DNA from: Dehalococcoidia bacterium
GTDB lineage: Bacteria; Chloroflexota; Dehalococcoidia; Plut-88900
Direction of reading: 5' to 3'
Length of the DNA stretch: 64,000 nucleotides
Assembly: GCA_965249275.1 (NCBI GenBank)
Contig: CBDFLQ010000005.1
Span: 323,030 to 387,029 of the forward strand
Part shown: positions 4,243 through 64,000 of the stretch, piece after piece
How positions within the stretch are numbered: the stretch's first letter is position 1
Layout: every line of letters starts with the position of its first letter
Position numbers and translations under genes: made by a program
Notes under the pieces: generated by a model
The model's database searches: none
Told to the model about the DNA's origin: nothing
What the model saw: only the letters and a program-made list of their open reading frames with translations

Positions 4243-5000
4243 TGAGAATTGTACCCTCCGTCTATTAGAAAGCTGGCTCCGGCCACGTATTCAGCATCGT
4301 CGGAGGCTAGGTAAAGGGCGAGCTTGGCGACGTCCTCGGGCACACCCATCCGGCCCACGGGTATGCCATCTGCGTATTTGGCAGCGATGGCTGGGGAACG
4401 AGAGACGCGTCGGGAGCCGGGGGTGTCGATCACACCGGGGACGATGCAGTTAACACGTATCCCACGCTCGCAATACTGGCTACTAGCGGTTTTGGTCAGC
4501 TGGACTATGCCAGCCTTGGTGACTGAGTAGGGCAAAGAGAAGGTGCTCCCCCGGAGCACGACTGCCGATGAGATGTTGATGATGGCCCCACCGCCGCCTT
4601 TCAGCATGGCGGGTATGGCGTACTTGCAACTTAGGAAAGGCCCCTTCAGAAACAACCCCAGTCCCGAGTCCCACTCCTCTTCAGTTACCTCGGCGACGGG
4701 GCCGGTCTCAGTTTGGCATGCAGCGCCGTTCACCAGGATATCGAGGCTGCCGTGCCGGGCCAGGGTGTCATCCATGAGGGTCTTCACCTGTGCTGAGTCG
4801 GTGACATCAACGCGGCGGAACTCGGAGCCTGCCCCCATCTCCTTAGCCTCGGTCACCGCTTGCTCCCCACCTGCTTCGTCTACGTCGGCGATTATGGTAA
4901 ATGCGCCTTCCTCGGCAAAGAGGAGAGCCGTGGCTCGGCTGATGCCCGATGCCGCACCCGTGACTATGGCCACCTTCCCAGCAAGCTTGCCGTTCATCAT
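4239..5000 (-). CDS. Short-chain dehydrogenase/reductase (FabG-like SDR)
   Basis: 253 aa. TGAASGIS Rossmann motif, a NISS-type motif, and YSVTKAG (the YxxxK catalytic motif). Confidence 0.9.
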   Translation of the reverse strand: MMNGKLAGKVAIVTGAASGISRATALLFAEEGAFTIIADVDEAGGEQAVTEAKEMGAGSEFRRVDVTDSAQVKTLMDDTLARHGSLDILVNGAACQTETGPVAEVTEEEWDSGLGLFLKGPFLSCKYAIPAMLKGGGGAIINISSAVVLRGSTFSLPYSVTKAGIVQLTKTASSQYCERGIRVNCIVPGVIDTPGSRRVSRSPAIAAKYADGIPVGRMGVPEDVAKLALYLASDDAEYVAGASFLIDGGYNSQ

Positions 5001-57915: not shown

Positions 57916-58014
57916 GGGGCCTTCCTTCGCTGCTCTCTTAGGCTCGGGACCTAGGGGTCGAATGTTACCACCAAGGGGGGAGGGGTGGGGCAATCAGCGG
58001 GAGGGTTAAGTAGC

Positions 58015-58371
58015 CTAGTAGAAGATGGAACGGGTGGGGACTAGTCGCCATTGCACCGGGTCGGCTGCAAGGCGCAGGCCTTCAAGGGTGTAGGCCCCCA
58101 GGAGGGGTGGGGTGCCGTCTTCGCCGAATATCACCAATGAGACCTCACTGGCCCCGTCTATGGTGACCCAGACCCGTCCCATCTCCAGCTCAACGATTCG
58201 ACCGTCCGCCAGTTCGAATTCGGCTTTGCCGATTGATGCGACGCCCAACCGGCGCAACATACCGTATGGCAACATGGTATAGGTTGCCCCGGTGTCCACC
58301 GTTGCCTCGATGTCCAGCACCTCTCCGCCGTCCATGCTGGTAATTTGTAACGGCGAGCTAAAAACTCCCAT
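58015..58371 (-). CDS. Retropepsin-like (clan AA) aspartic protease domain protein
   Basis: 118 aa. VDTGAT active-site motif and a single-domain size consistent with homodimeric retropepsin-like proteins. Confidence 0.6.
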   Translation of the reverse strand: MGVFSSPLQITSMDGGEVLDIEATVDTGATYTMLPYGMLRRLGVASIGKAEFELADGRIVELEMGRVWVTIDGASEVSLVIFGEDGTPPLLGAYTLEGLRLAADPVQWRLVPTRSIFY

Positions 58372-58517
58372 ATTGGGAACCTCTTTCTAAGCTATGTCGC
58401 CTGGCTATGTCACCTGATGGCTGGAACTCAATCCAAACCTTACCAAAAGCTGCAGCAAGTTTGCCACACATCTCAATCCCTGTGGTATTTTGAGCATGCC
58501 CAACGGCTCAACTGGAG

Positions 58518-59075
58518 ATGCTTGCCTTGAACATGACAAATGCCGACCAATCCTTTATCCGAAGGATGTACACCGCCGACAACCTACCTGTCTTGCAACG
58601 ACTCCCCGACGCATCAGTCGACCTCATCTACCTGGACCCGCCCTTCAATTCCAACCGGGACTACGCTGCGCCTATAACGGTTAAGAACCCCAAGACCGGC
58701 AAGCGGGAAAAGCACCTGGCCGAGTTCAAGGACACTTGGACTTTCACTGATGACGACGCCGAGTGGTTATATGTTATTAGGTCTGACTATCCCACCGTCT
58801 ATGCAGTGATCGAGTCAGTCAAAACAGCCCACAGCTTCCGCATGGCGGGCTACTTGTGCATGATGGCTGTCCGGTTACTCGAAATGCAACGCATTCTCAA
58901 GCATAGCGGGGCGATATATCTACACTGCGATCCTACCGCATCTCACTATCTGAAACTGCTCATGGACACAGTATTCGGCCCGTCAAACTTCAAGGCTGAC
59001 ATTACTTGGAGGCGAACTAGCAGCCATAACGACGTAAGGCGGAATTACGGTGCATTGGGAGACAACTTATTCTTT
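58518..59075 (+). pseudogene. DNA methyltransferase-HNH gene, 5' fragment (interrupted by transposon)
   Basis: Beta-class order, with motif IV first (DLIYLDPPFNS). The frame runs into the transposon IR and stops after 6 foreign codons (ORF-track end 59093). Confidence 0.85.
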
Positions 59076-59123
59076 GGGAATTATATACAATAAGGCATCA
59101 GGAATTGGCCTGATAAACCATAC

Positions 59124-59525
59124 CTATCGTGGACGACGGCCCAACGTCGAGGTTGTGTGACCTGTTGCCGTGTTATTTTCCGCCGACCACTCCCAATTTC
59201 GGGTCAACTCTTTCAGCCATTGGGCACCTTCGGCAGCATCAAAATCACTCGCACCGCAATCGGGCCAATTGGGGCGACCAGAATAGTTCATCTTCACTCC
59301 CTGCGCCGATGCAATGAACCAGACCGAATCAGCGTCTGTTCGCTCCTTAGAATTATCACGACCCCATTCAACGTACATTGAAAAGGGAGACACATTTACA
59401 TTCGTCGGCCAAACAAAATCGTTCGGAAGATGCTCCAACAGCGCCTCCAGCGCCTGCGTCATCTGATGCATGCTGTCTACCACCCCGTACATGGACCCGC
59501 ATCCCGAAGAACCTTCAATCGTCAT
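59124..59525 (-). CDS. Hypothetical protein (transposon passenger)
   Basis: 133-aa ORF with no recognisable motif. Confidence 0.45.
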   Translation of the reverse strand: MTIEGSSGCGSMYGVVDSMHQMTQALEALLEHLPNDFVWPTNVNVSPFSMYVEWGRDNSKERTDADSVWFIASAQGVKMNYSGRPNWPDCGASDFDAAEGAQWLKELTRNWEWSAENNTATGHTTSTLGRRPR

Positions 59526-59629
59526 AATACTCCTTGCTTACGAACATCTTAGCTATCCAACTGTCTCTTTTTCCCGCGTCTCGCCGTAGGTCTTTACTAC
59601 TCTCTCGGGGTTTGAGAACGTGGGTTGGT

Positions 59630-59718
59630 GGGTAAGTGCCGGAACCGGCAGACGGGCTATCCTGCCAAGATAGTGGCCCTTCGTGGTCGTAGGGGTTCGA
59701 TCCCCCTCTTACCCACCA
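59630..59718 (+). tRNA. Class II (long variable arm) tRNA, Leu-type scaffold, anticodon GCC (isotype/anticodon mismatch)
   Basis: Hand fold. Acceptor GGGTAAG/CTTACCC, U8, D arm CCG-GAACCGGCAGA-CGG, anticodon stem CTATC/GATAG with loop CTGCCAA (GCC at 59664-59666). 17-nt variable arm, T arm AGGGG-TTCGATC-CCCCT, A73, encoded CCA. Confidence 0.7.
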
Positions 59719-59728
59719 ACCCCTCTAA

Positions 59729-59956
59729 TTATCCTCGAGGCGGGAAGGGATCGTTGCCGTAGCTGTCCTTCTCCCTGATCTTCCCGTCCTTGCCATGTAA
59801 GTAATACTCGGCGTCATGGTTTCGAGCAACCTGCCGGCCGTAAGAATCTGCCTCGGCCTGGGTATCGAAGGACTTCGTAATCCTCGATGCTCCGCCCTTC
59901 CGCACAGCCCACTTATCCCCATAGGGAACGGTGTGTTGAGTTTCTTTGCGTGCCAT
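59729..59956 (-). CDS. DUF2188-like small protein (transposon passenger)
   Basis: 75 aa. ...W.V.K.G..R..K.F.TQ.EA...GR..A.N....Y.HG.DG.I pattern. Confidence 0.55.
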   Translation of the reverse strand: MARKETQHTVPYGDKWAVRKGGASRITKSFDTQAEADSYGRQVARNHDAEYYLHGKDGKIREKDSYGNDPFPPRG

Positions 59957-60293
59957 TACATTACCTCTGTTATCTAAGGTGCTACCTCTTTATGGTCCTT
60001 CCCGTCGTCCTGCTCCTCACCCTTCTTGGGATTCGGCCCCTTCACCACCGCCCGTAGCACATCCTCAAACGTGTCGGGTATGTGGAGCCTCTCAAACGGG
60101 CTTCTGTCTTCGCTCTTTTTCATCTTATATAGATTATACCCCCACTTGCCTGAGATTGAAACACCTGTGCGGTATGGCACTATAGAAACTAAGGGGGGGT
60201 AAGTAGACGGTAGACTTTACCCTCCCTACCTGTTGATAATTCCAATATAGAAGAAAGCCTTGGAGGTTAATCACATCTCCAAGACTCTCATCA

Positions 60294-60382
60294 GCCGTAG
60301 TGGTGGAACTGGTAGACACGCCCGGCTTGCACCCGGGTGGACTAATCGTCCGTGCAGGGTTCGAATCCCGCCTACGGCACCA
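60294..60382 (+). tRNA. Class II tRNA, Leu-type scaffold, anticodon UGC (isotype/anticodon mismatch)
   Basis: Hand fold. Acceptor GCCGTAG/CTACGGC, D arm GTG-GAACTGGTAGA-CAC, anticodon stem CCCGG/CCGGG with loop CTTGCAC (TGC at 60328-60330). 16-nt variable arm (GGAC/GTCC stem). T arm GC(A)GGG-TTCGAAT-CCCGC with one bulged A. A73 and encoded CCA. Confidence 0.6.
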
Positions 60383-60598
60383 CTCTTCTTGATCCCTATT
60401 TTCATTATAAACACCTCTTCACCTTCCTGTAAATTCGTTGACGTCTACCCCCTGTGGGTGTACCTTGTCCCCGCTTAGGTAGTCTACCCGTACGCTGAAC
60501 GTTATTTGGGCATGGGGCCGCTCATGCCCCCTTGCCAGTGAAACGGGCCAGGACTGCCTAAGCAACGGTCACCAGCCTAGCTGCAAGGGGGTTCCAAT

Positions 60599-61144
60599 AT
60601 GACAAAAAGCCGAATCGGGTTTTGGCTACTCATCTCTCTAATCCCTATGGGATTACTCACCTTCCTCGGATTCATCATAAGCATTGTTCTATTCATAGGG
60701 TCCAGTAGTGATGAACCAGAGGGAGCCGAAATAGCATGTACCTTTGTCTTCTTTGCTTCGCTCTTCTACTGGTGGGGTGCTCTCTTCACCGGCATCGGAT
60801 TGAAGATATTGTCCAGGCGGGAAAATCAGCAGATGTTTGCTCAAGCTCAGCGATACGCCGAGGTACACGGATGGCAACCCATCTCGCAGTCCGCATGGAG
60901 AGCACTTAAAGCAGACAGAGCTTCCCTTGCTGTAAGTCGAAGCATTCAGGGGACGATGTATACCCTCACTATCGCATCAGGAGTGAACACCACCACTGTC
61001 ACTAACTTCGCTACACCTCTATGGGCACTACAATTTGGTGACTGGTTATGGGAGAGAACGGGGGGCGAAAACATCACCCCAGAGACAGCACAGGCTCAAC
61101 GGCAAGAATGGTCTCAGAACTTGGCAATCATTCCCACCGTCTAG
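60599..61144 (+). CDS. Hypothetical membrane protein (transposon passenger)
   Basis: 181 aa with two N-terminal TM helices. Confidence 0.5.
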   Translation: MTKSRIGFWLLISLIPMGLLTFLGFIISIVLFIGSSSDEPEGAEIACTFVFFASLFYWWGALFTGIGLKILSRRENQQMFAQAQRYAEVHGWQPISQSAWRALKADRASLAVSRSIQGTMYTLTIASGVNTTTVTNFATPLWALQFGDWLWERTGGENITPETAQAQRQEWSQNLAIIPTV

Positions 61145-61159
61145 CCATCCATACGGTAA

Positions 61160-62077
61160 CTACACATTGGTAATTAAGTCGTCGTAGGTTAGTCGCTTGC
61201 CGTGCGTTCCCTTGATCAACCTCTTCATCTGGTCAAGGGTATCCATGGGCCGGTCGTTGTGCCGCCCAGCGAACTCGGTGGCATAGCGGCTCAAGTGTTT
61301 GGGAGAGACATGGTGGTAAGTACCCATAATCCCCCGCTTGAGCATGGCCCAGTGGCTCTCGATGCTGTTGGTCGTAACCTCACCCCTAACGTACTCCCCG
61401 GTGGCATGATCAACCGCTTCGTGCTTCAAGGGAATACCCCTGTAGGAGAGGTGTCCATCACTGTGCAAGGTAGCGTCCGGTTCAACGTTGTCGAGAACGA
61501 ATCCTTGGAGAATGGGTTTCTTCGTAGAGGGAAGCACCTCGGCCTTGATCTGATTAGTTGGCTTATCCAAGAGCCCCGCCACGATGGCCTTACCTTTAGG
61601 CCCTCTCCCCATGCCTCTCCACTTCCCGCCAACGTAGGTCTCATCCACCTCGACAGGCCCTCCGAAGAGTCCCTGCTCTGACTCCCACGCCTTCCGTATC
61701 CTGTGCGCCAAGTGCCAAGCTGATTTTTGGGTAATGTTGAGGTCCCGATGCAATTTCATCGAGGAAACGCCCTTGAGGTTCGTGGTCATGAGGTAAATGG
61801 CGATACCCCACTTGGAGAGAGGAAGGTTGGAACCGTGCATGACGGTGCCAGTTTTGACGGAAAATTCCAGCTGGCAGTAGGTGCAGTGTAAGGGCTTTAC
61901 CTTGCGGTTGGGGCGACGGGTGATCTCCATGCCGCCACAGCGGGGGCATGATATACCGCTGGGCCAACGAGACTCGATGAATAACTGCTCAGCCTTTTCC
62001 TCGGTGGAGAATAATTTAGTGACCTCCAGAAGGGACAAACCCTTCCGATAATGCTTACCTGGGGCGTTCCGTGCCAT
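61160..62077 (-). CDS. IS1595-family (ISXO2-like) transposase
   Basis: N-terminal zinc ribbon (CPRCGG...CTYC), then a DDE domain (VEVDETYVGG...LHSDGHLSY...NSIESHWAMLKR). The ORF extends to 62221, but MARNAPGKHY at 62077 is the likely start. Confidence 0.9.
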   Translation of the reverse strand: MARNAPGKHYRKGLSLLEVTKLFSTEEKAEQLFIESRWPSGISCPRCGGMEITRRPNRKVKPLHCTYCQLEFSVKTGTVMHGSNLPLSKWGIAIYLMTTNLKGVSSMKLHRDLNITQKSAWHLAHRIRKAWESEQGLFGGPVEVDETYVGGKWRGMGRGPKGKAIVAGLLDKPTNQIKAEVLPSTKKPILQGFVLDNVEPDATLHSDGHLSYRGIPLKHEAVDHATGEYVRGEVTTNSIESHWAMLKRGIMGTYHHVSPKHLSRYATEFAGRHNDRPMDTLDQMKRLIKGTHGKRLTYDDLITNV

Positions 62078-62390
62078 GCGCTGATCTCCTACTTCGGCTA
62101 TCCTTGTTGACATAACTATTATAACACATCTCCTAATTTGTGTAAACAATGCCCAAGCAATGGAGAAAACATGGAAAATACTGCTAAAACTTGGACACAA
62201 TTTCAGTGGAAATAGTATCATACGGAGGGCAGGGTACGCAAGGAATTTATGGCACCAGGAGGCACCAATGGTCCCCTATCGGGGAATGAAACTCAGCCGG
62301 CTCCACTTTGAATAGACGTTCTGCAAAAACGTCGTGGGGTTGGCTACAAGAAGGACATTTTAGACCCTTGCATACCCTGCCAATACAACG

Positions 62391-62487
62391 TGAGAGGACA
62401 TGCCTGTTGGTGCAGGCCAGAATTTGCCAAACTCTTGAGAACGTTGGCATATCCAACGTTGCGGTTCGATTCCGATCCTCTCCGCCA
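62391..62487 (+). tRNA. Aberrant tRNA-like gene (non-canonical cloverleaf, anticodon loop TTGCCAA = GCC); possibly a pseudogene
   Basis: 7-bp acceptor GAGAGGA/TCCTCTC flanked by mismatches. 5-bp D stem GCCTG/CAGGC. Anticodon stem AGAAT/ACTCT with one A-C mismatch. 8-bp variable-arm stem AACGTTGG/CCAACGTT. 3-bp T stem with a TTCGATT loop. G73 + CCA. Confidence 0.35.
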
Positions 62488-62875
62488 TCAAATAATTTGT
62501 ATTATCATATAGATGAGGGGAGTAGTGGTAATCCGGTAGACTCTCGATGTTCCCAACATCGGCATTGCTTAGGTAGTGTGTGTCAGACGCTGGCACAGAG
62601 TTTTTACAGAGGAACCATCTACTCTCCTTCAAGATTATACATGTCGCAGTCCCTGGCTGTGTGACAGGAACGCCTTGGTACCAGCGTTGGGCTTTCAACC
62701 TGACTGCGCCTCCATATCTCCTCAATTTGAATGGGAAACAAGATGGACGACCAGACATATGTCACTGTTGGAGGTTTGGCAAGACCTCCTTGATGAATTA
62801 GCGCTCGTGTTCAGCGTCGCTTCATATCTGGTCGTCCATCTCCCACTGCTTGATGCCTTATTGTATATAATTCCC

Positions 62876-63771
62876 TATTCTTTTATACGAAGAGCACTAA
62901 TTTCATATTTAATACTCAATACATGCCTTACTCCAAAGAGCACATGGAGAAATTTTACTCCCACATCGATAAAGACGGCAGAAAGTACAGCACTGACAAT
63001 TTGAGAAGCCCTGCACCCAGACCTAATTTGACTTACGAGTACAAGGGATACAAACCTCACCCCAATGGGTGGACAGTGTCACTTGAGAGAATGAAGCGAC
63101 TCGACGCAGAGGGGCGTCTTCATTTTCCGAAAAAGAAGGACGGTCGAATCCGCATAAAGAAATTCCTTGATGAAATGCCCGGCGTGCCTATGGGCAATAT
63201 ATGGGATGACATCAGACCTATCTCATCTCACTCTGAAGAACGCCTAGGCTACCCTACCCAGAAACCCTTGGCCCTGCTAGAACGCGTAATTAGGGCATCC
63301 ACCAACGAGGGCGATCTAGTTTTGGACCCCTTTGCGGGTTGCGCCACGGCCTGTGTCGCAGCGGAGAAACTGAAACGGCAGTGGATCGGCATTGACGTGA
63401 GCGACCTTGCAGTCAAGCACGTCTTGGAGCGCATCCAGGATGGTTACAACCAGGGCGACTTCCCGGATATCCTTGAAACAGGGTTCCATCCCGACAAGGT
63501 GGATCACTTAGTTATCAGTGGGGAGGCACGCGCCCCGCGCTACCAAGACCGCAAGCCGGAGCTATACGTACACCAGAACGGCAGGTGTGCGGGCTGCCAC
63601 CTCGAACTCCCGGAGCGCCTTCTGGCCGTGGACCATATTAAGCCGAGATCCAAGGGGGGCGCCGACGCTATCGAAAACCTTCAACTCCTCTGCACTGACT
63701 GCAACTCCCGCAAAGGCAACCGGGACATGAAATACCTGTTGGAGTCCCTAAAGAGGGACGGAATAATTTAG
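62876..63771 (+). pseudogene. DNA methyltransferase-HNH gene, 3' fragment
   Basis: In frame with the 5' fragment once the transposon and one TSD copy are removed (…LFF|YTKSTNFIFNTQYMPYSKEH…). Contains PTQKP, AdoMet motif I (DPFAGCATA) and a C-terminal HNH nuclease (CAGCH...DHIKPRSKGG...NLQLLCTDCNSRKGN). Confidence 0.85.
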
Positions 63772-63789
63772 AGGCGAGGGCTTTCCAAT

Positions 63790-64000
63790 ATGACCATAGA
63801 CATTCACAACCACATCTGGACCCGGGAGTATCTTTCCGACCACTGGTGGGATATTTACGCAAACTTTTTCTCTAGCTATATCACCGACTCCCCATTCTCG
63901 GGGACGCCGGAGGAGATAGACCGGAACCTGTTTGCCAAATGCTTTGATCCCGACGGCTCGGAGTGCATAGTGGAGATGGATGAGGCGGGGATAGACGTGG
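63790..64000 (+). CDS. Amidohydrolase-family protein (5' partial, runs off window)
   Basis: MTIDIHNHIW... is the typical metal-binding start (HxH) of amidohydrolase-2/ACMSD-like enzymes. No stop occurs before the window end. Confidence 0.6.
   Translation, partial: MTIDIHNHIWTREYLSDHWWDIYANFFSSYITDSPFSGTPEEIDRNLFAKCFDPDGSECIVEMDEAGIDV

Follow-up and report, generated by a model that had tools for sequence, protein, structure and literature searches.

Transposon-borne tRNA genes with mismatched scaffolds and anticodons in a Dehalococcoidia bacterium

We describe three transfer RNA (tRNA) genes carried by a transposon of the IS1595 insertion sequence (IS) family in a Dehalococcoidia bacterium. 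The DNA analyzed, hereafter the window, is a stretch of 64,000 nucleotides (contig CBDFLQ010000005.1, positions 323,030 to 387,029), and the transposon within it is intact and recently transposed. Two of its tRNA genes, named W1 and W2, have the scaffold of a leucine tRNA and anticodons that read glycine (GCC) and alanine (UGC) codons; the third, W3, resembles the Ser-type allo-tRNAs and carries GCC again. The anatomy of the genes, their mobility as a unit, the conservation of their structure and the turnover of their anticodon arm were observed directly. To the complete reading, in which these mismatched tRNAs are charged and work as attenuated missense tRNAs carried by the transposon, we give about an even chance. 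The three genes are the following.

59630-59718, plus strand: W1, class II tRNA gene of the Leu type (anticodon GCC, discriminator A73, CCA encoded), called by ARAGORN
60294-60382, plus strand: W2, class II tRNA gene of the Leu type (anticodon UGC, C3:G70, discriminator A73, CCA encoded), called by ARAGORN and the Rfam tRNA model
62391-62488, plus strand: W3, aberrant gene similar to allo-tRNA or tRNA-Sec with anticodon GCC, recognized by its anatomy, its fold and a sub-threshold hit to the Rfam tRNA-Sec model

ARAGORN, run on the whole 64-kb window, called exactly two tRNAs, W1 (gcc) and W2 (tgc), of 89 nt each. W2 scored 47.2 bits on the Rfam tRNA model (threshold 29). W1 did not reach that threshold, its best Rfam model being tRNA-Sec (27.4 bits), and its homologue in one of the related elements described below (L002) reached 40.6 bits with the tRNA model. 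In both genes the acceptor stem is 7 bp long and the D stem 3 bp, the latter closing an 11-nt loop (GAACCGGCAGA and GAACUGGUAGA). The anticodon stem has 5 bp, and its 7-nt loop includes U33 and A37 (CUGCCAA in W1 and CUUGCAC in W2). A variable arm of ca. 17 nt, which forms a stem of its own, and a T loop follow, and both genes end in A73 and an encoded CCA. An earlier, sequence-only reading had proposed two clean class II cloverleaves with these arms and anticodons, and both ARAGORN and the letters themselves bear it out. It was also right that the Gly and Ala identity marks are missing, as W2 has C3:G70, hence no G3:U70, and W1 has A73. The same reading placed a third tRNA-like gene with anticodon GCC downstream. 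Its anatomy is as described, and the proposed likeness to allo-tRNAs holds in G73, in a D arm like that of tRNA-Sec and, if mismatches are counted, in a 9/3-like branch; the evidence that it is a tRNA gene is weaker, with no ARAGORN call in the 64-kb window and a tRNA-Sec score of 34.6 bits (E 2.8e-4 in a 4.2-kb search) below the threshold of 47. In W3, seven Watson-Crick acceptor pairs are flanked by U1.C72 and C.A mismatches, the D arm has a 6-bp stem (GCCUGU/GCAGGC) and a UGGU tetraloop, the anticodon stem contains one A.C mismatch and closes a loop UUGCCAA, the variable and T stems are 8 and 3 bp long, and the gene ends in G73-CCA. This fold is modestly better than those of shuffled sequences (z -2.2), and the slot that W3 occupies is filled by genuine tRNAs in the three closest relatives (L001, L002 and L003). 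The signs of a pseudogene (broken stems, odd loop sizes, no compensation) were absent from W1 and W2 and present in part in W3, with its three mismatches.

The type of each scaffold was judged by alignment to E. coli tRNA-Leu and by BLAST annotation. Among 5421 E. coli genomes, the first 28 nt of W2 match solely genes annotated as tRNA-Leu, and W2 is colinear with the E. coli leuU gene, tRNA-Leu(GAG), across the acceptor, D arm, variable arm and T arm, which supports the Leu-type scaffold already proposed for W1 and W2. The orthologue of W2 in L001 is even identical to leuU over its first 19 nt. In the leuU alignment, G12, A14, A15, G18, and G19 are invariant, with G18G19 in the E. coli register, and W1 deviates by C10:G25. 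W1, W2 and all eight Leu-type relatives finish in ACCA or ACC, i.e., they have A73. However, the anticodons of the Leu-type genes (GCC, UGC, AGG, CGC, GCG, CUC, GGC, and GUC) include no Leu anticodon (NAG or NAA). For a tRNA with anticodon UAA (L001) and another with CCA (L034), tRNA-Ser is the best match in E. coli, and G3:U70 is found in none of the three tRNAs with Ala anticodons (UGC, GGC, and CGC). In all, there are eight Leu-type scaffolds, about five of Ser or allo type, and one with G3:U70 and A73 that carries a Phe anticodon (GAA); no class II gene retains its cognate anticodon. According to two sources (PMC11028032; PMC11415595), the anticodon is not read by the leucyl-, seryl- and alanyl-tRNA synthetases (LeuRS, SerRS and AlaRS). 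Since LeuRS and SerRS ignore it, they would charge these tRNAs, and the confinement of the scaffolds to anticodon-blind synthetases (Leu, Ser, and once Ala) seems to be the strongest indirect argument that aminoacylation matters.

The transposon and the gene that it interrupts are made up of the following features.

58518-63771, plus strand: target gene for an N6/N4 DNA methylase-HNH protein, split into 58518-59075 and 62884-63771 (Pfam N6_N4_Mtase in both halves, and HNH)
59068-59075: left target-site duplication of 8 bp, TATTCTTT, identical to 62876-62883
59076-59108: left terminal inverted repeat of 33 nt, starting with GGGAATTATATAC, 91% complementary to 62843-62875
59124-59525, minus strand: cargo open reading frame (ORF) of 133 aa, with no Pfam, PHROG or PADLOC match
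59729-59956, minus strand: cargo DUF2188 protein of 75 aa (Pfam PF09954, E 4.8e-21)
60599-61144, plus strand: cargo membrane protein of 181 aa, from the ORF list, with a conserved structured leader upstream
61160-62077, minus strand: IS1595-family DDE transposase (Pfam), 305 aa from the Met at 62077
62843-62875: right terminal inverted repeat of 33 nt, pairing with the left one
62876-62883: right target-site duplication, TATTCTTT, matching the left copy

The transposase has a DDE_Tnp_IS1595 domain (PF12762, E 2.3e-30) and an N-terminal Zn_ribbon_IS1595 (PF12760, E 4e-8), and more than 7900 homologues. When the insertion is removed in silico (58518-59075 joined to 62884-63771), a single methylase-HNH ORF of 481 aa without internal stops is restored, so the insertion must have been precise and recent. 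The inverted repeats, the 8-bp duplication and the restored target ORF agree with the earlier placement of all three tRNA genes inside one 3.8-kb mobile element. Its GC content (51.5%) differs from that of the rest of the window (59.9%), which is chromosomal, with genes for DnaE, MetRS and RecX, the MetRS being 76 to 77% identical to proteins from metagenome-assembled genomes (MAGs) of Dehalococcoidia or Chloroflexi. Along its full length, the DUF2188 cargo protein is similar to PDC-S16, a candidate anti-phage defence family of PADLOC (E 5e-32), and it also matches PHROG 3220; one more ORF of the element, of 68 aa, has no family match. No tRNA-related, nuclease or synthetase domain was found in the cargo proteins with Pfam, PHROG and PADLOC, nor an aminoacyl-tRNA synthetase domain in any ORF of the element, and exact-protein look-ups of the window genes gave none on record. 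Self-recoding of the transposase was considered and rejected: in an alignment of ~120 homologues, no conserved Leu position has a Gly or Ala codon in the window, nor a Pro or Ala codon in the close relatives. The interrupted methylase-HNH gene also has a low GC content (about 50 to 53%; within 58000-64000 of the window), and a related IS1595 element (L012, 4915-8322) carries a methylase-HNH gene as cargo; from this parallel, the tRNA transposon may have landed in another mobile element.

The three closest transposases, 90, 80 and 73% identical to that of the window, lie on short contigs (L001-L003), and class II tRNAs stand beside the transposase in 3/3, with anticodons AGG and UAA (L001), CGC (L002), and UAA (L003). 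A scan of one genome per species gave 50 loci with transposases 41 to 58% identical, nearly all in MAGs of Dehalococcoidia or Chloroflexota. Searches of these loci with ARAGORN, with Rfam at the gathering threshold and with a covariance model derived from ten tRNAs of the set gave additional long-arm tRNAs adjacent to the transposase, among them the following.

L005 and L048: Leu-type tRNA, anticodon GCG
L029: Leu-type tRNA, anticodon CUC
L031: Leu-type tRNA, anticodon GGC
L032: Leu-type tRNA, anticodon GUC
L034, 3926-4048: Ser-type tRNA, anticodon CCA (Trp), variable arm of about 49-50 nt
L011, 7356-7462: Ser-type tRNA, anticodon CUU (Lys), variable arm of about 34 nt
L005, 8108-8182 (also L048): class I tRNA, anticodon GAA (Phe), with the alanine identity mark (G3:U70 and A73), 60.8 bits on the Rfam tRNA model
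L036, 2500-2575: class I tRNA with an 8-nt anticodon loop, CUGACGAA, shaped like a frameshift suppressor

Ten tRNAs from the relatives exceed the curated threshold of the Rfam tRNA model (39.9 to 60.8 bits). The Ser-type tRNAs of L034 and L011 are near IS1595 transposases. A further class I tRNA adjacent to a transposase (L032, 3264-3341) received a two-base anticodon from ARAGORN, consistent with a 6-nt loop in an ambiguous alignment; this gene and that of L036 (2500-2575) are above the Rfam tRNA threshold. Related elements are bounded by the terminal motif GGGAATTATATAC (a 13-mer), with the tRNAs inside in L005, L029, L031, and L033. One genome holds two copies (L005 and L048) of a 4.07-kb element with three tRNAs, 99.9% identical and flanked by different 8-bp duplications, so that the tRNA-bearing elements evidently transpose as units. 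tRNA carriers make up roughly a quarter of the distinct elements sampled, and the rest have other cargo. Some copies of the cargo are accompanied by a truncated transposase or none. One of them retains a decayed gene of the W2 type (L054, 4448-4539, 27 bits), and three (L055, L056, and L057) are free of tRNA, the 257-nt block equivalent to 60176-60432 being missing as a precise indel. In L033, one copy has lost its D arm (4804-4874); the anticodon in the right-end slot of this element is GCC, and in the same slot of L005 it is GAA. No intact tRNAs were found in the additional relatives of the cargo proteins (L054-L060) or of the transposase (L062). Independent mobility of the tRNA modules was discarded, as neither the window nor the 62 loci contain extra copies of the W1, W2 or W3 modules. 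Scans of JGI metagenomes (by protein and by tRNA-scaffold pattern) found nothing, and neither did those of IMG/VR (two scaffold patterns and the IS end), which gave no sign of phage origin. Two neighbors deserve mention, a reverse transcriptase/maturase of a group II intron just upstream of a related IS1595 transposase (L062, 612-2401) and a HicB-like gene that adjoins the cargo copy of L055.

Ten of the IS-borne tRNAs were aligned and their cloverleaf pairs scored, with shuffled (n=500) and slid-partner controls. Standard pairs fill 95% of the cells, versus 65% after shuffling and 39 to 48% with slid partners. Two-sided changes are found at 21/24 pairs, and none of the 500 shuffles reached the observed values, in a set that mixes scaffold types, so that much of the compensation separates different tRNAs and the changes among relatives are not independent events. 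Within a lineage, compensatory changes were seen only in the pair formed by W2 and its orthologue (L001b). The helix of the variable arm is 80% paired among relatives. The comparison of W2 with that orthologue (300 aligned bases) is the most informative. The flanks are 91% identical (193/212) and the tRNA body outside the anticodon arm 81% (58/72), while the anticodon arm has only 41% identity (7/17; Fisher p = 2e-6 against the flanks), which indicates replacement or diversification of this arm. Compensatory changes affect acceptor pairs 5:68 and 6:67 as well as the T stem, and the replaced anticodon stem, now with anticodon AGG in L001, is fully paired. Similarly, W1 and the tRNA of L002 have the variable and T arms in common and different anticodon arms (CUAUC-CUGCCAA-GAUAG versus CAACA-CUCGCAA-UGUUG). 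Upstream of the transposase, a slot with fixed boundaries (T1 at the 5' end and C72 at the 3' end) holds four different tRNAs in four related elements: W3 in the window, Ser-type tRNAs with UAA in L001 and L003, and a W1-type tRNA with CGC in L002. Thus, among close relatives the anticodon arm turns over and the rest of the tRNA is kept. Most of the loops still read C32-U33-NNN-A37-A38, and in the extended anticodon A37 is expected where the anticodon ends in C, A, or U. A template such as those of diversity-generating retroelements was rejected as the source of new arms, as the window has no second copy of any of the three arms (at ≤4 mismatches, beyond chance) and the element no reverse transcriptase.

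These data bear on two points raised beforehand by the sequence-only reading. Its test of whether the anticodons are conserved in homologous copies came out negative, with AGG, CGC, and UAA in place of UGC and GCC, and a conserved role in Gly-to-Leu or Ala-to-Leu recoding is therefore unsupported. Its alternative of simple decaying pseudogenes with freely drifting loops also fails, since the loops keep U33, A37 and a length of 7 nt, and the stems are re-paired. More generally, we regard it as quite improbable that host tRNA genes were captured and then decayed neutrally inside the transposon, becoming functionless pseudogenes with drifted anticodons. Such a process would account for the several mismatches of W3 and its lack of an ARAGORN call, for the blemish that W1 and W2 each carry, and for the clearly decayed copies in L054 and L033, and the cargo of this IS family is very heterogeneous. 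Yet it has to be reconciled with the high proportion of paired stem positions and double changes, with the ten relatives above the Rfam curated threshold, and with anticodon stems that were wholly re-paired after replacement. Recent neutral capture should also have left some class II gene with a cognate anticodon, and there is none. Finally, the intact tRNAs belong to active elements, with intact transposase, repeats and duplications, and the decayed ones to dead elements, so that simple neutral decay does not fit W1 and W2. Judging from their sequences, these appear to be selected, mobile tRNA genes rather than decaying pseudogenes, although the Gly and Ala anticodons themselves are not conserved.

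Another explanation, unlikely in our view, is that the tRNA-shaped genes are useful to the transposon, or to its cargo, through their RNA structure (as signals for RNase P/Z, insulators against read-through or antisense partners) and not as decoders, in which case the anticodon would be irrelevant. The turnover of anticodons is what this idea would predict, and so are the fixed slots upstream of the transposase, between cargo ORFs of opposite strands and near the end of the element. L005 has two tRNAs directly upstream of its transposase on the same strand, W1 and W2 are antisense to the cargo operon, with W2 facing a strong convergent promoter, and the U1.C72 kept in slot 1, like other features, disfavors EF-Tu binding or decoding. 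However, RNase P/Z need no well-formed anticodon arm, and still 5 pairs, a 7-nt loop, U33, and A37 are kept with full compensation. A purely structural role would also let the arm diverge at the same pace as the neutral flanks, not faster, and it leaves unexplained the restriction to Leu, Ser and Ala identity types. The encoded CCA speaks against it too, and most related elements do without a tRNA.

The regulatory sequences predicted around W2 and W3 bear on a further possibility. Promoters were taken as consensus matches only, and the number of sites in the region equals the shuffled expectation.

60176-60432, plus strand: W2 module, a 257-nt block comprising the tRNA, a hairpin and two promoter-like sites, one of them convergent and antisense, 85% identical in L001
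60211-60240, plus strand: promoter-like site TAGACT-18-GATAAT, a consensus match 53 nt upstream of W2, conserved in L001
60404-60433, minus strand: sigma-70-like promoter TTTACA-18-TATAAT, a consensus match (11/12) antisense across W2, conserved in L001
62192-62221, plus strand: promoter-like site TGGACA-18-TATCAT, a consensus match 169 nt upstream of W3, divergent from the transposase

The terminator-like hairpin of the W2 module (60193-60226) is also conserved in L001, which has in addition an equivalent of the W3 promoter-like site upstream of its slot-1 tRNA. The transposase has a promoter-like site of its own (62146-62118), and no such site was detected for W1. An antisense promoter common to the tRNA-bearing elements was ruled out, as one is seen only at W2 and its L001 orthologue. 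The leader of W3 is enclosed by a 16-nt long-range inverted repeat (62228-62243 / 62366-62381) with one compensatory change (C-G to G-C) relative to L001.

The W2 block is thus self-contained (a sense promoter-like site, the tRNA, a convergent promoter with 11/12 matches, and a terminator-like hairpin), and its conservation in L001 is at least that of coding DNA. This would suit the toxic half of an addiction or abortive-infection module, in which a stable missense tRNA is silenced by a labile antisense RNA or by the transcript of the cargo operon and released when transcription is disturbed by loss of the element or phage attack. The neighboring DUF2188 gene matches a PADLOC candidate defence family, and allo-tRNAs are often found beside toxin-antitoxin systems and kill E. 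coli when induced (PMC5389517). We nevertheless consider such a module very unlikely, because the convergent promoter is confined to the W2/L001 lineage, the promoters are consensus matches no more numerous than after shuffling, PDC-S16 is just a candidate defence family, and copies of the cargo without tRNA modules exist. The chance is slimmer still that nucleases of the anticodon loop (VapC/PrrC-like toxins or defence systems) find decoys or spare substrates in these tRNAs, with an arms race changing the anticodon arm. That arm is indeed the fastest-changing part, toxin-antitoxin genes are reported near allo-tRNAs in the literature, and the HicB-like gene stands beside the cargo copy of L055. 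But the element encodes no nuclease, it is not evident why an insertion sequence should have to counter such enzymes, and a cognate body would serve best as a decoy, not a Leu or Ser scaffold prone to mistranslation.

According to the reading that we favor, that of attenuated missense tRNAs, the genes would be transcribed, with the consensus promoter-like sites at W2 and W3 as candidates, and processed. LeuRS would then charge W1 and W2, and SerRS would charge W3, whatever the anticodon, resulting in a low, attenuated insertion of Leu or Ser at Gly and Ala codons. The attenuation may come from structural blemishes and, for W2, also from the convergent antisense promoter. Features that look like attenuators are the buried CCA and C10:G25 of W1, the T-stem bulge of W2, the mismatches of W3, the U1.C72 of slot 1, and the C33/A34 of L001. 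As for the gain to the transposon or its host, a toxic or addictive module, stress-induced diversification of the proteome and tolerated hitch-hiking are all candidates.

Several points weigh against this reading. GGY codons account for 4.3% of the host codons, GCA for 1.3%, and all four Ala codons for 8.7%, so full activity would touch nearly every protein and be very harmful. The anticodon differs between orthologous slots (AGG, CGC, and UAA versus UGC and GCC) of elements whose transposases are 73 to 90% identical. Most related IS1595 elements have no detectable tRNA, so the tRNAs are not needed for transposition. W1 has C10:G25 where G10:C25 is near-universal, its CCA end lies hidden within an extended helix of 22 nt (59622-59643 / 59701-59722), and it has neither a promoter-like site nor an Rfam tRNA match. 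The T stem of W2 contains a bulged or mismatched A, and W3 combines two acceptor mismatches, the A.C of its anticodon stem and a T stem of 3 bp. U1.C72 is found in 4/4 slot-1 tRNAs, which disfavors decoding or the use of EF-Tu, the AGG tRNA of L001 has C33 (and A34), and those of L032 and L036 have 6- or 8-nt loops. Lastly, the identity rules of the Dehalococcoidia LeuRS and SerRS are taken over from E. coli. A broader version of the favored reading is possible, and we put it forward tentatively: the IS1595 transposons of Dehalococcoidia could be the vehicles of a functional pool of missense tRNAs on Leu, Ser and Ala scaffolds, with actively exchanged anticodon arms. They would form a mobile system that spreads new codon assignments, serving either as a toxic or abortive module under regulation or to diversify the proteome on induction, with W2 kept in check by convergent antisense RNA.

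Other conserved RNA features lie within the element. One is the following.

62515-62630, plus strand: structured RNA downstream of W3, with a minimum free energy of -52.4 kcal/mol (z -5.0)

It is multi-branched, 80% identical to L002 1149-1361 with compensatory changes by eye, and ends in a terminator-like hairpin followed by a T run (terminator-like site at 62579-62597). A Leu-like D-loop motif, GGUAAUCCGGUAGAC, is found within it, and it may be a degenerate or five-way-junction tRNA-like RNA. Directly upstream of the gene for the 181-aa membrane protein there is a structured leader of ~145 nt (about 60455-60598, plus strand), with a long stem (GCUUAGGUAGUC/GACUGCCUAAGC), an inner hairpin and no Rfam family match. 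Its nucleotide identity is about 85 to 95% in 8 loci, although the membrane protein is just 48 to 65% identical, which makes it a candidate for a new cis-regulatory RNA or riboswitch. The block at 62636-62720 shares about 95% identity with L002, more conserved than the transposase gene, and in L002 it adjoins the right inverted repeat. It can be drawn as a small cloverleaf-like fold, called by no tool, and could be a transposase-binding or regulatory region.

Natural tRNAs with discordant identity and anticodon are rare, and each bears on how the code changes and on deliberate mistranslation. What seems new here is the use of ordinary 7/5 tRNA-Leu scaffolds with many non-Leu anticodons, beyond the exotic shapes of allo-tRNAs, the carriage inside a defined and demonstrably active transposon, in a phylum for which we found no earlier report, and the swap of anticodon arms in orthologous slots while the rest of the tRNA is preserved. 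In a literature search of incomplete coverage, we found no report of tRNA genes as IS1595 passengers, of transposon-borne mismatched tRNAs or of such tRNAs in Chloroflexota. Should these tRNAs turn out to be charged and used, transposons would offer a path for the horizontal spread of intermediates in codon reassignment or of toxic tRNAs. The scaffolds would also be a ready-made chassis for genetic-code engineering, and the claim is directly testable in E. coli. For annotation pipelines, labels based on the anticodon alone (tRNA-Gly and tRNA-Ala) distort the tRNA inventories of MAGs.

The closest known counterparts are the allo-tRNAs and associated irregular tRNAs described in Acidobacteria, Proteobacteria, and Clostridia (Mukai et al. 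2017, PMC5389517). The tRNAs of the transposons share with them the long variable arm, the identity of anticodon-blind synthetases (Ser, with G73/U73, or Ala, with G3:U70), diverse non-cognate anticodons (GCG, GUC, and UAA occur in both sets), links to toxin-antitoxin or transposon-related genes, and, in some members, mutations that destabilize stems (PMC5389517). Allo-tRNAs were found as sub-threshold hits of the tRNA-Sec model, and W3 scores likewise. On the other hand, allo-tRNAs have a 12-bp acceptor branch of 8/4 or 9/3 and a tRNA-Sec-like D arm, whereas W1, W2 and most relatives have the canonical 7/5 Leu scaffold with A73. W3 has a 9/3 branch only if its two mismatches are counted (7 Watson-Crick pairs and a 3-bp T stem). 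The allo-tRNA D arm, in which a long stem carries a tetraloop, is present in W3 only and absent from W1 and W2, and W3 likewise has the Ser identity of allo-tRNAs (long variable arm, G73 or U73, non-Ser anticodon), W1 and W2 having A73. The hosts also differ, Clostridia, Proteobacteria, and Acidobacteria in one case and Chloroflexota (Dehalococcoidia) in the other, and here the tRNAs belong to a defined, recently active IS1595 transposon, whose comparable orthologous slots reveal the replacement of the arm.

As an IS1595-family insertion sequence, the element is typical in its DDE_Tnp_IS1595 domain and N-terminal zinc ribbon, its terminal inverted repeats, its 8-bp duplication and passenger genes that vary among relatives. 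Compared with canonical bacterial tRNA-Leu, the acceptor, 3-bp D stem, 11-nt loop, G18G19, long variable arm, pre-T linker and A73-CCA are colinear with leuU, but none of the eight Leu-type genes has a Leu anticodon (NAG or NAA). All eight have A37, whereas the canonical CUN-reading tRNA-Leu has G37, and canonical tRNA-Leu is a housekeeping gene whereas these are carried by transposons. In Streptomycetaceae, tRNAProX, which is accompanied by ProRSx, also puts non-cognate anticodons (AGC, AGU, and AUU) on one scaffold; its A33 and A34 are thought to damp decoding, and it is toxic when expressed in E. coli (PMC10404621; reviewed in PMC11415595). The use of one scaffold with several anticodons is similar, and A33/A34 can be compared with the C33/A34 of the AGG tRNA of L001. 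However, tRNAProX is a class I tRNA of Pro identity with a dedicated synthetase paralogue, while the element here has no synthetase gene, and the tRNAProX paper makes no mention of transposons or mobile elements (PMC10404621). Among eukaryotes, the tRNA-Ser(CAG) of the yeast CUG clade and human variants of tRNA-Ser, -Ala, and -Leu are equally cases in which anticodon-blind synthetases allow mistranslating tRNAs. Those variants are point mutations of chromosomal genes, whereas the present genes exchange entire anticodon arms and travel with a transposon.

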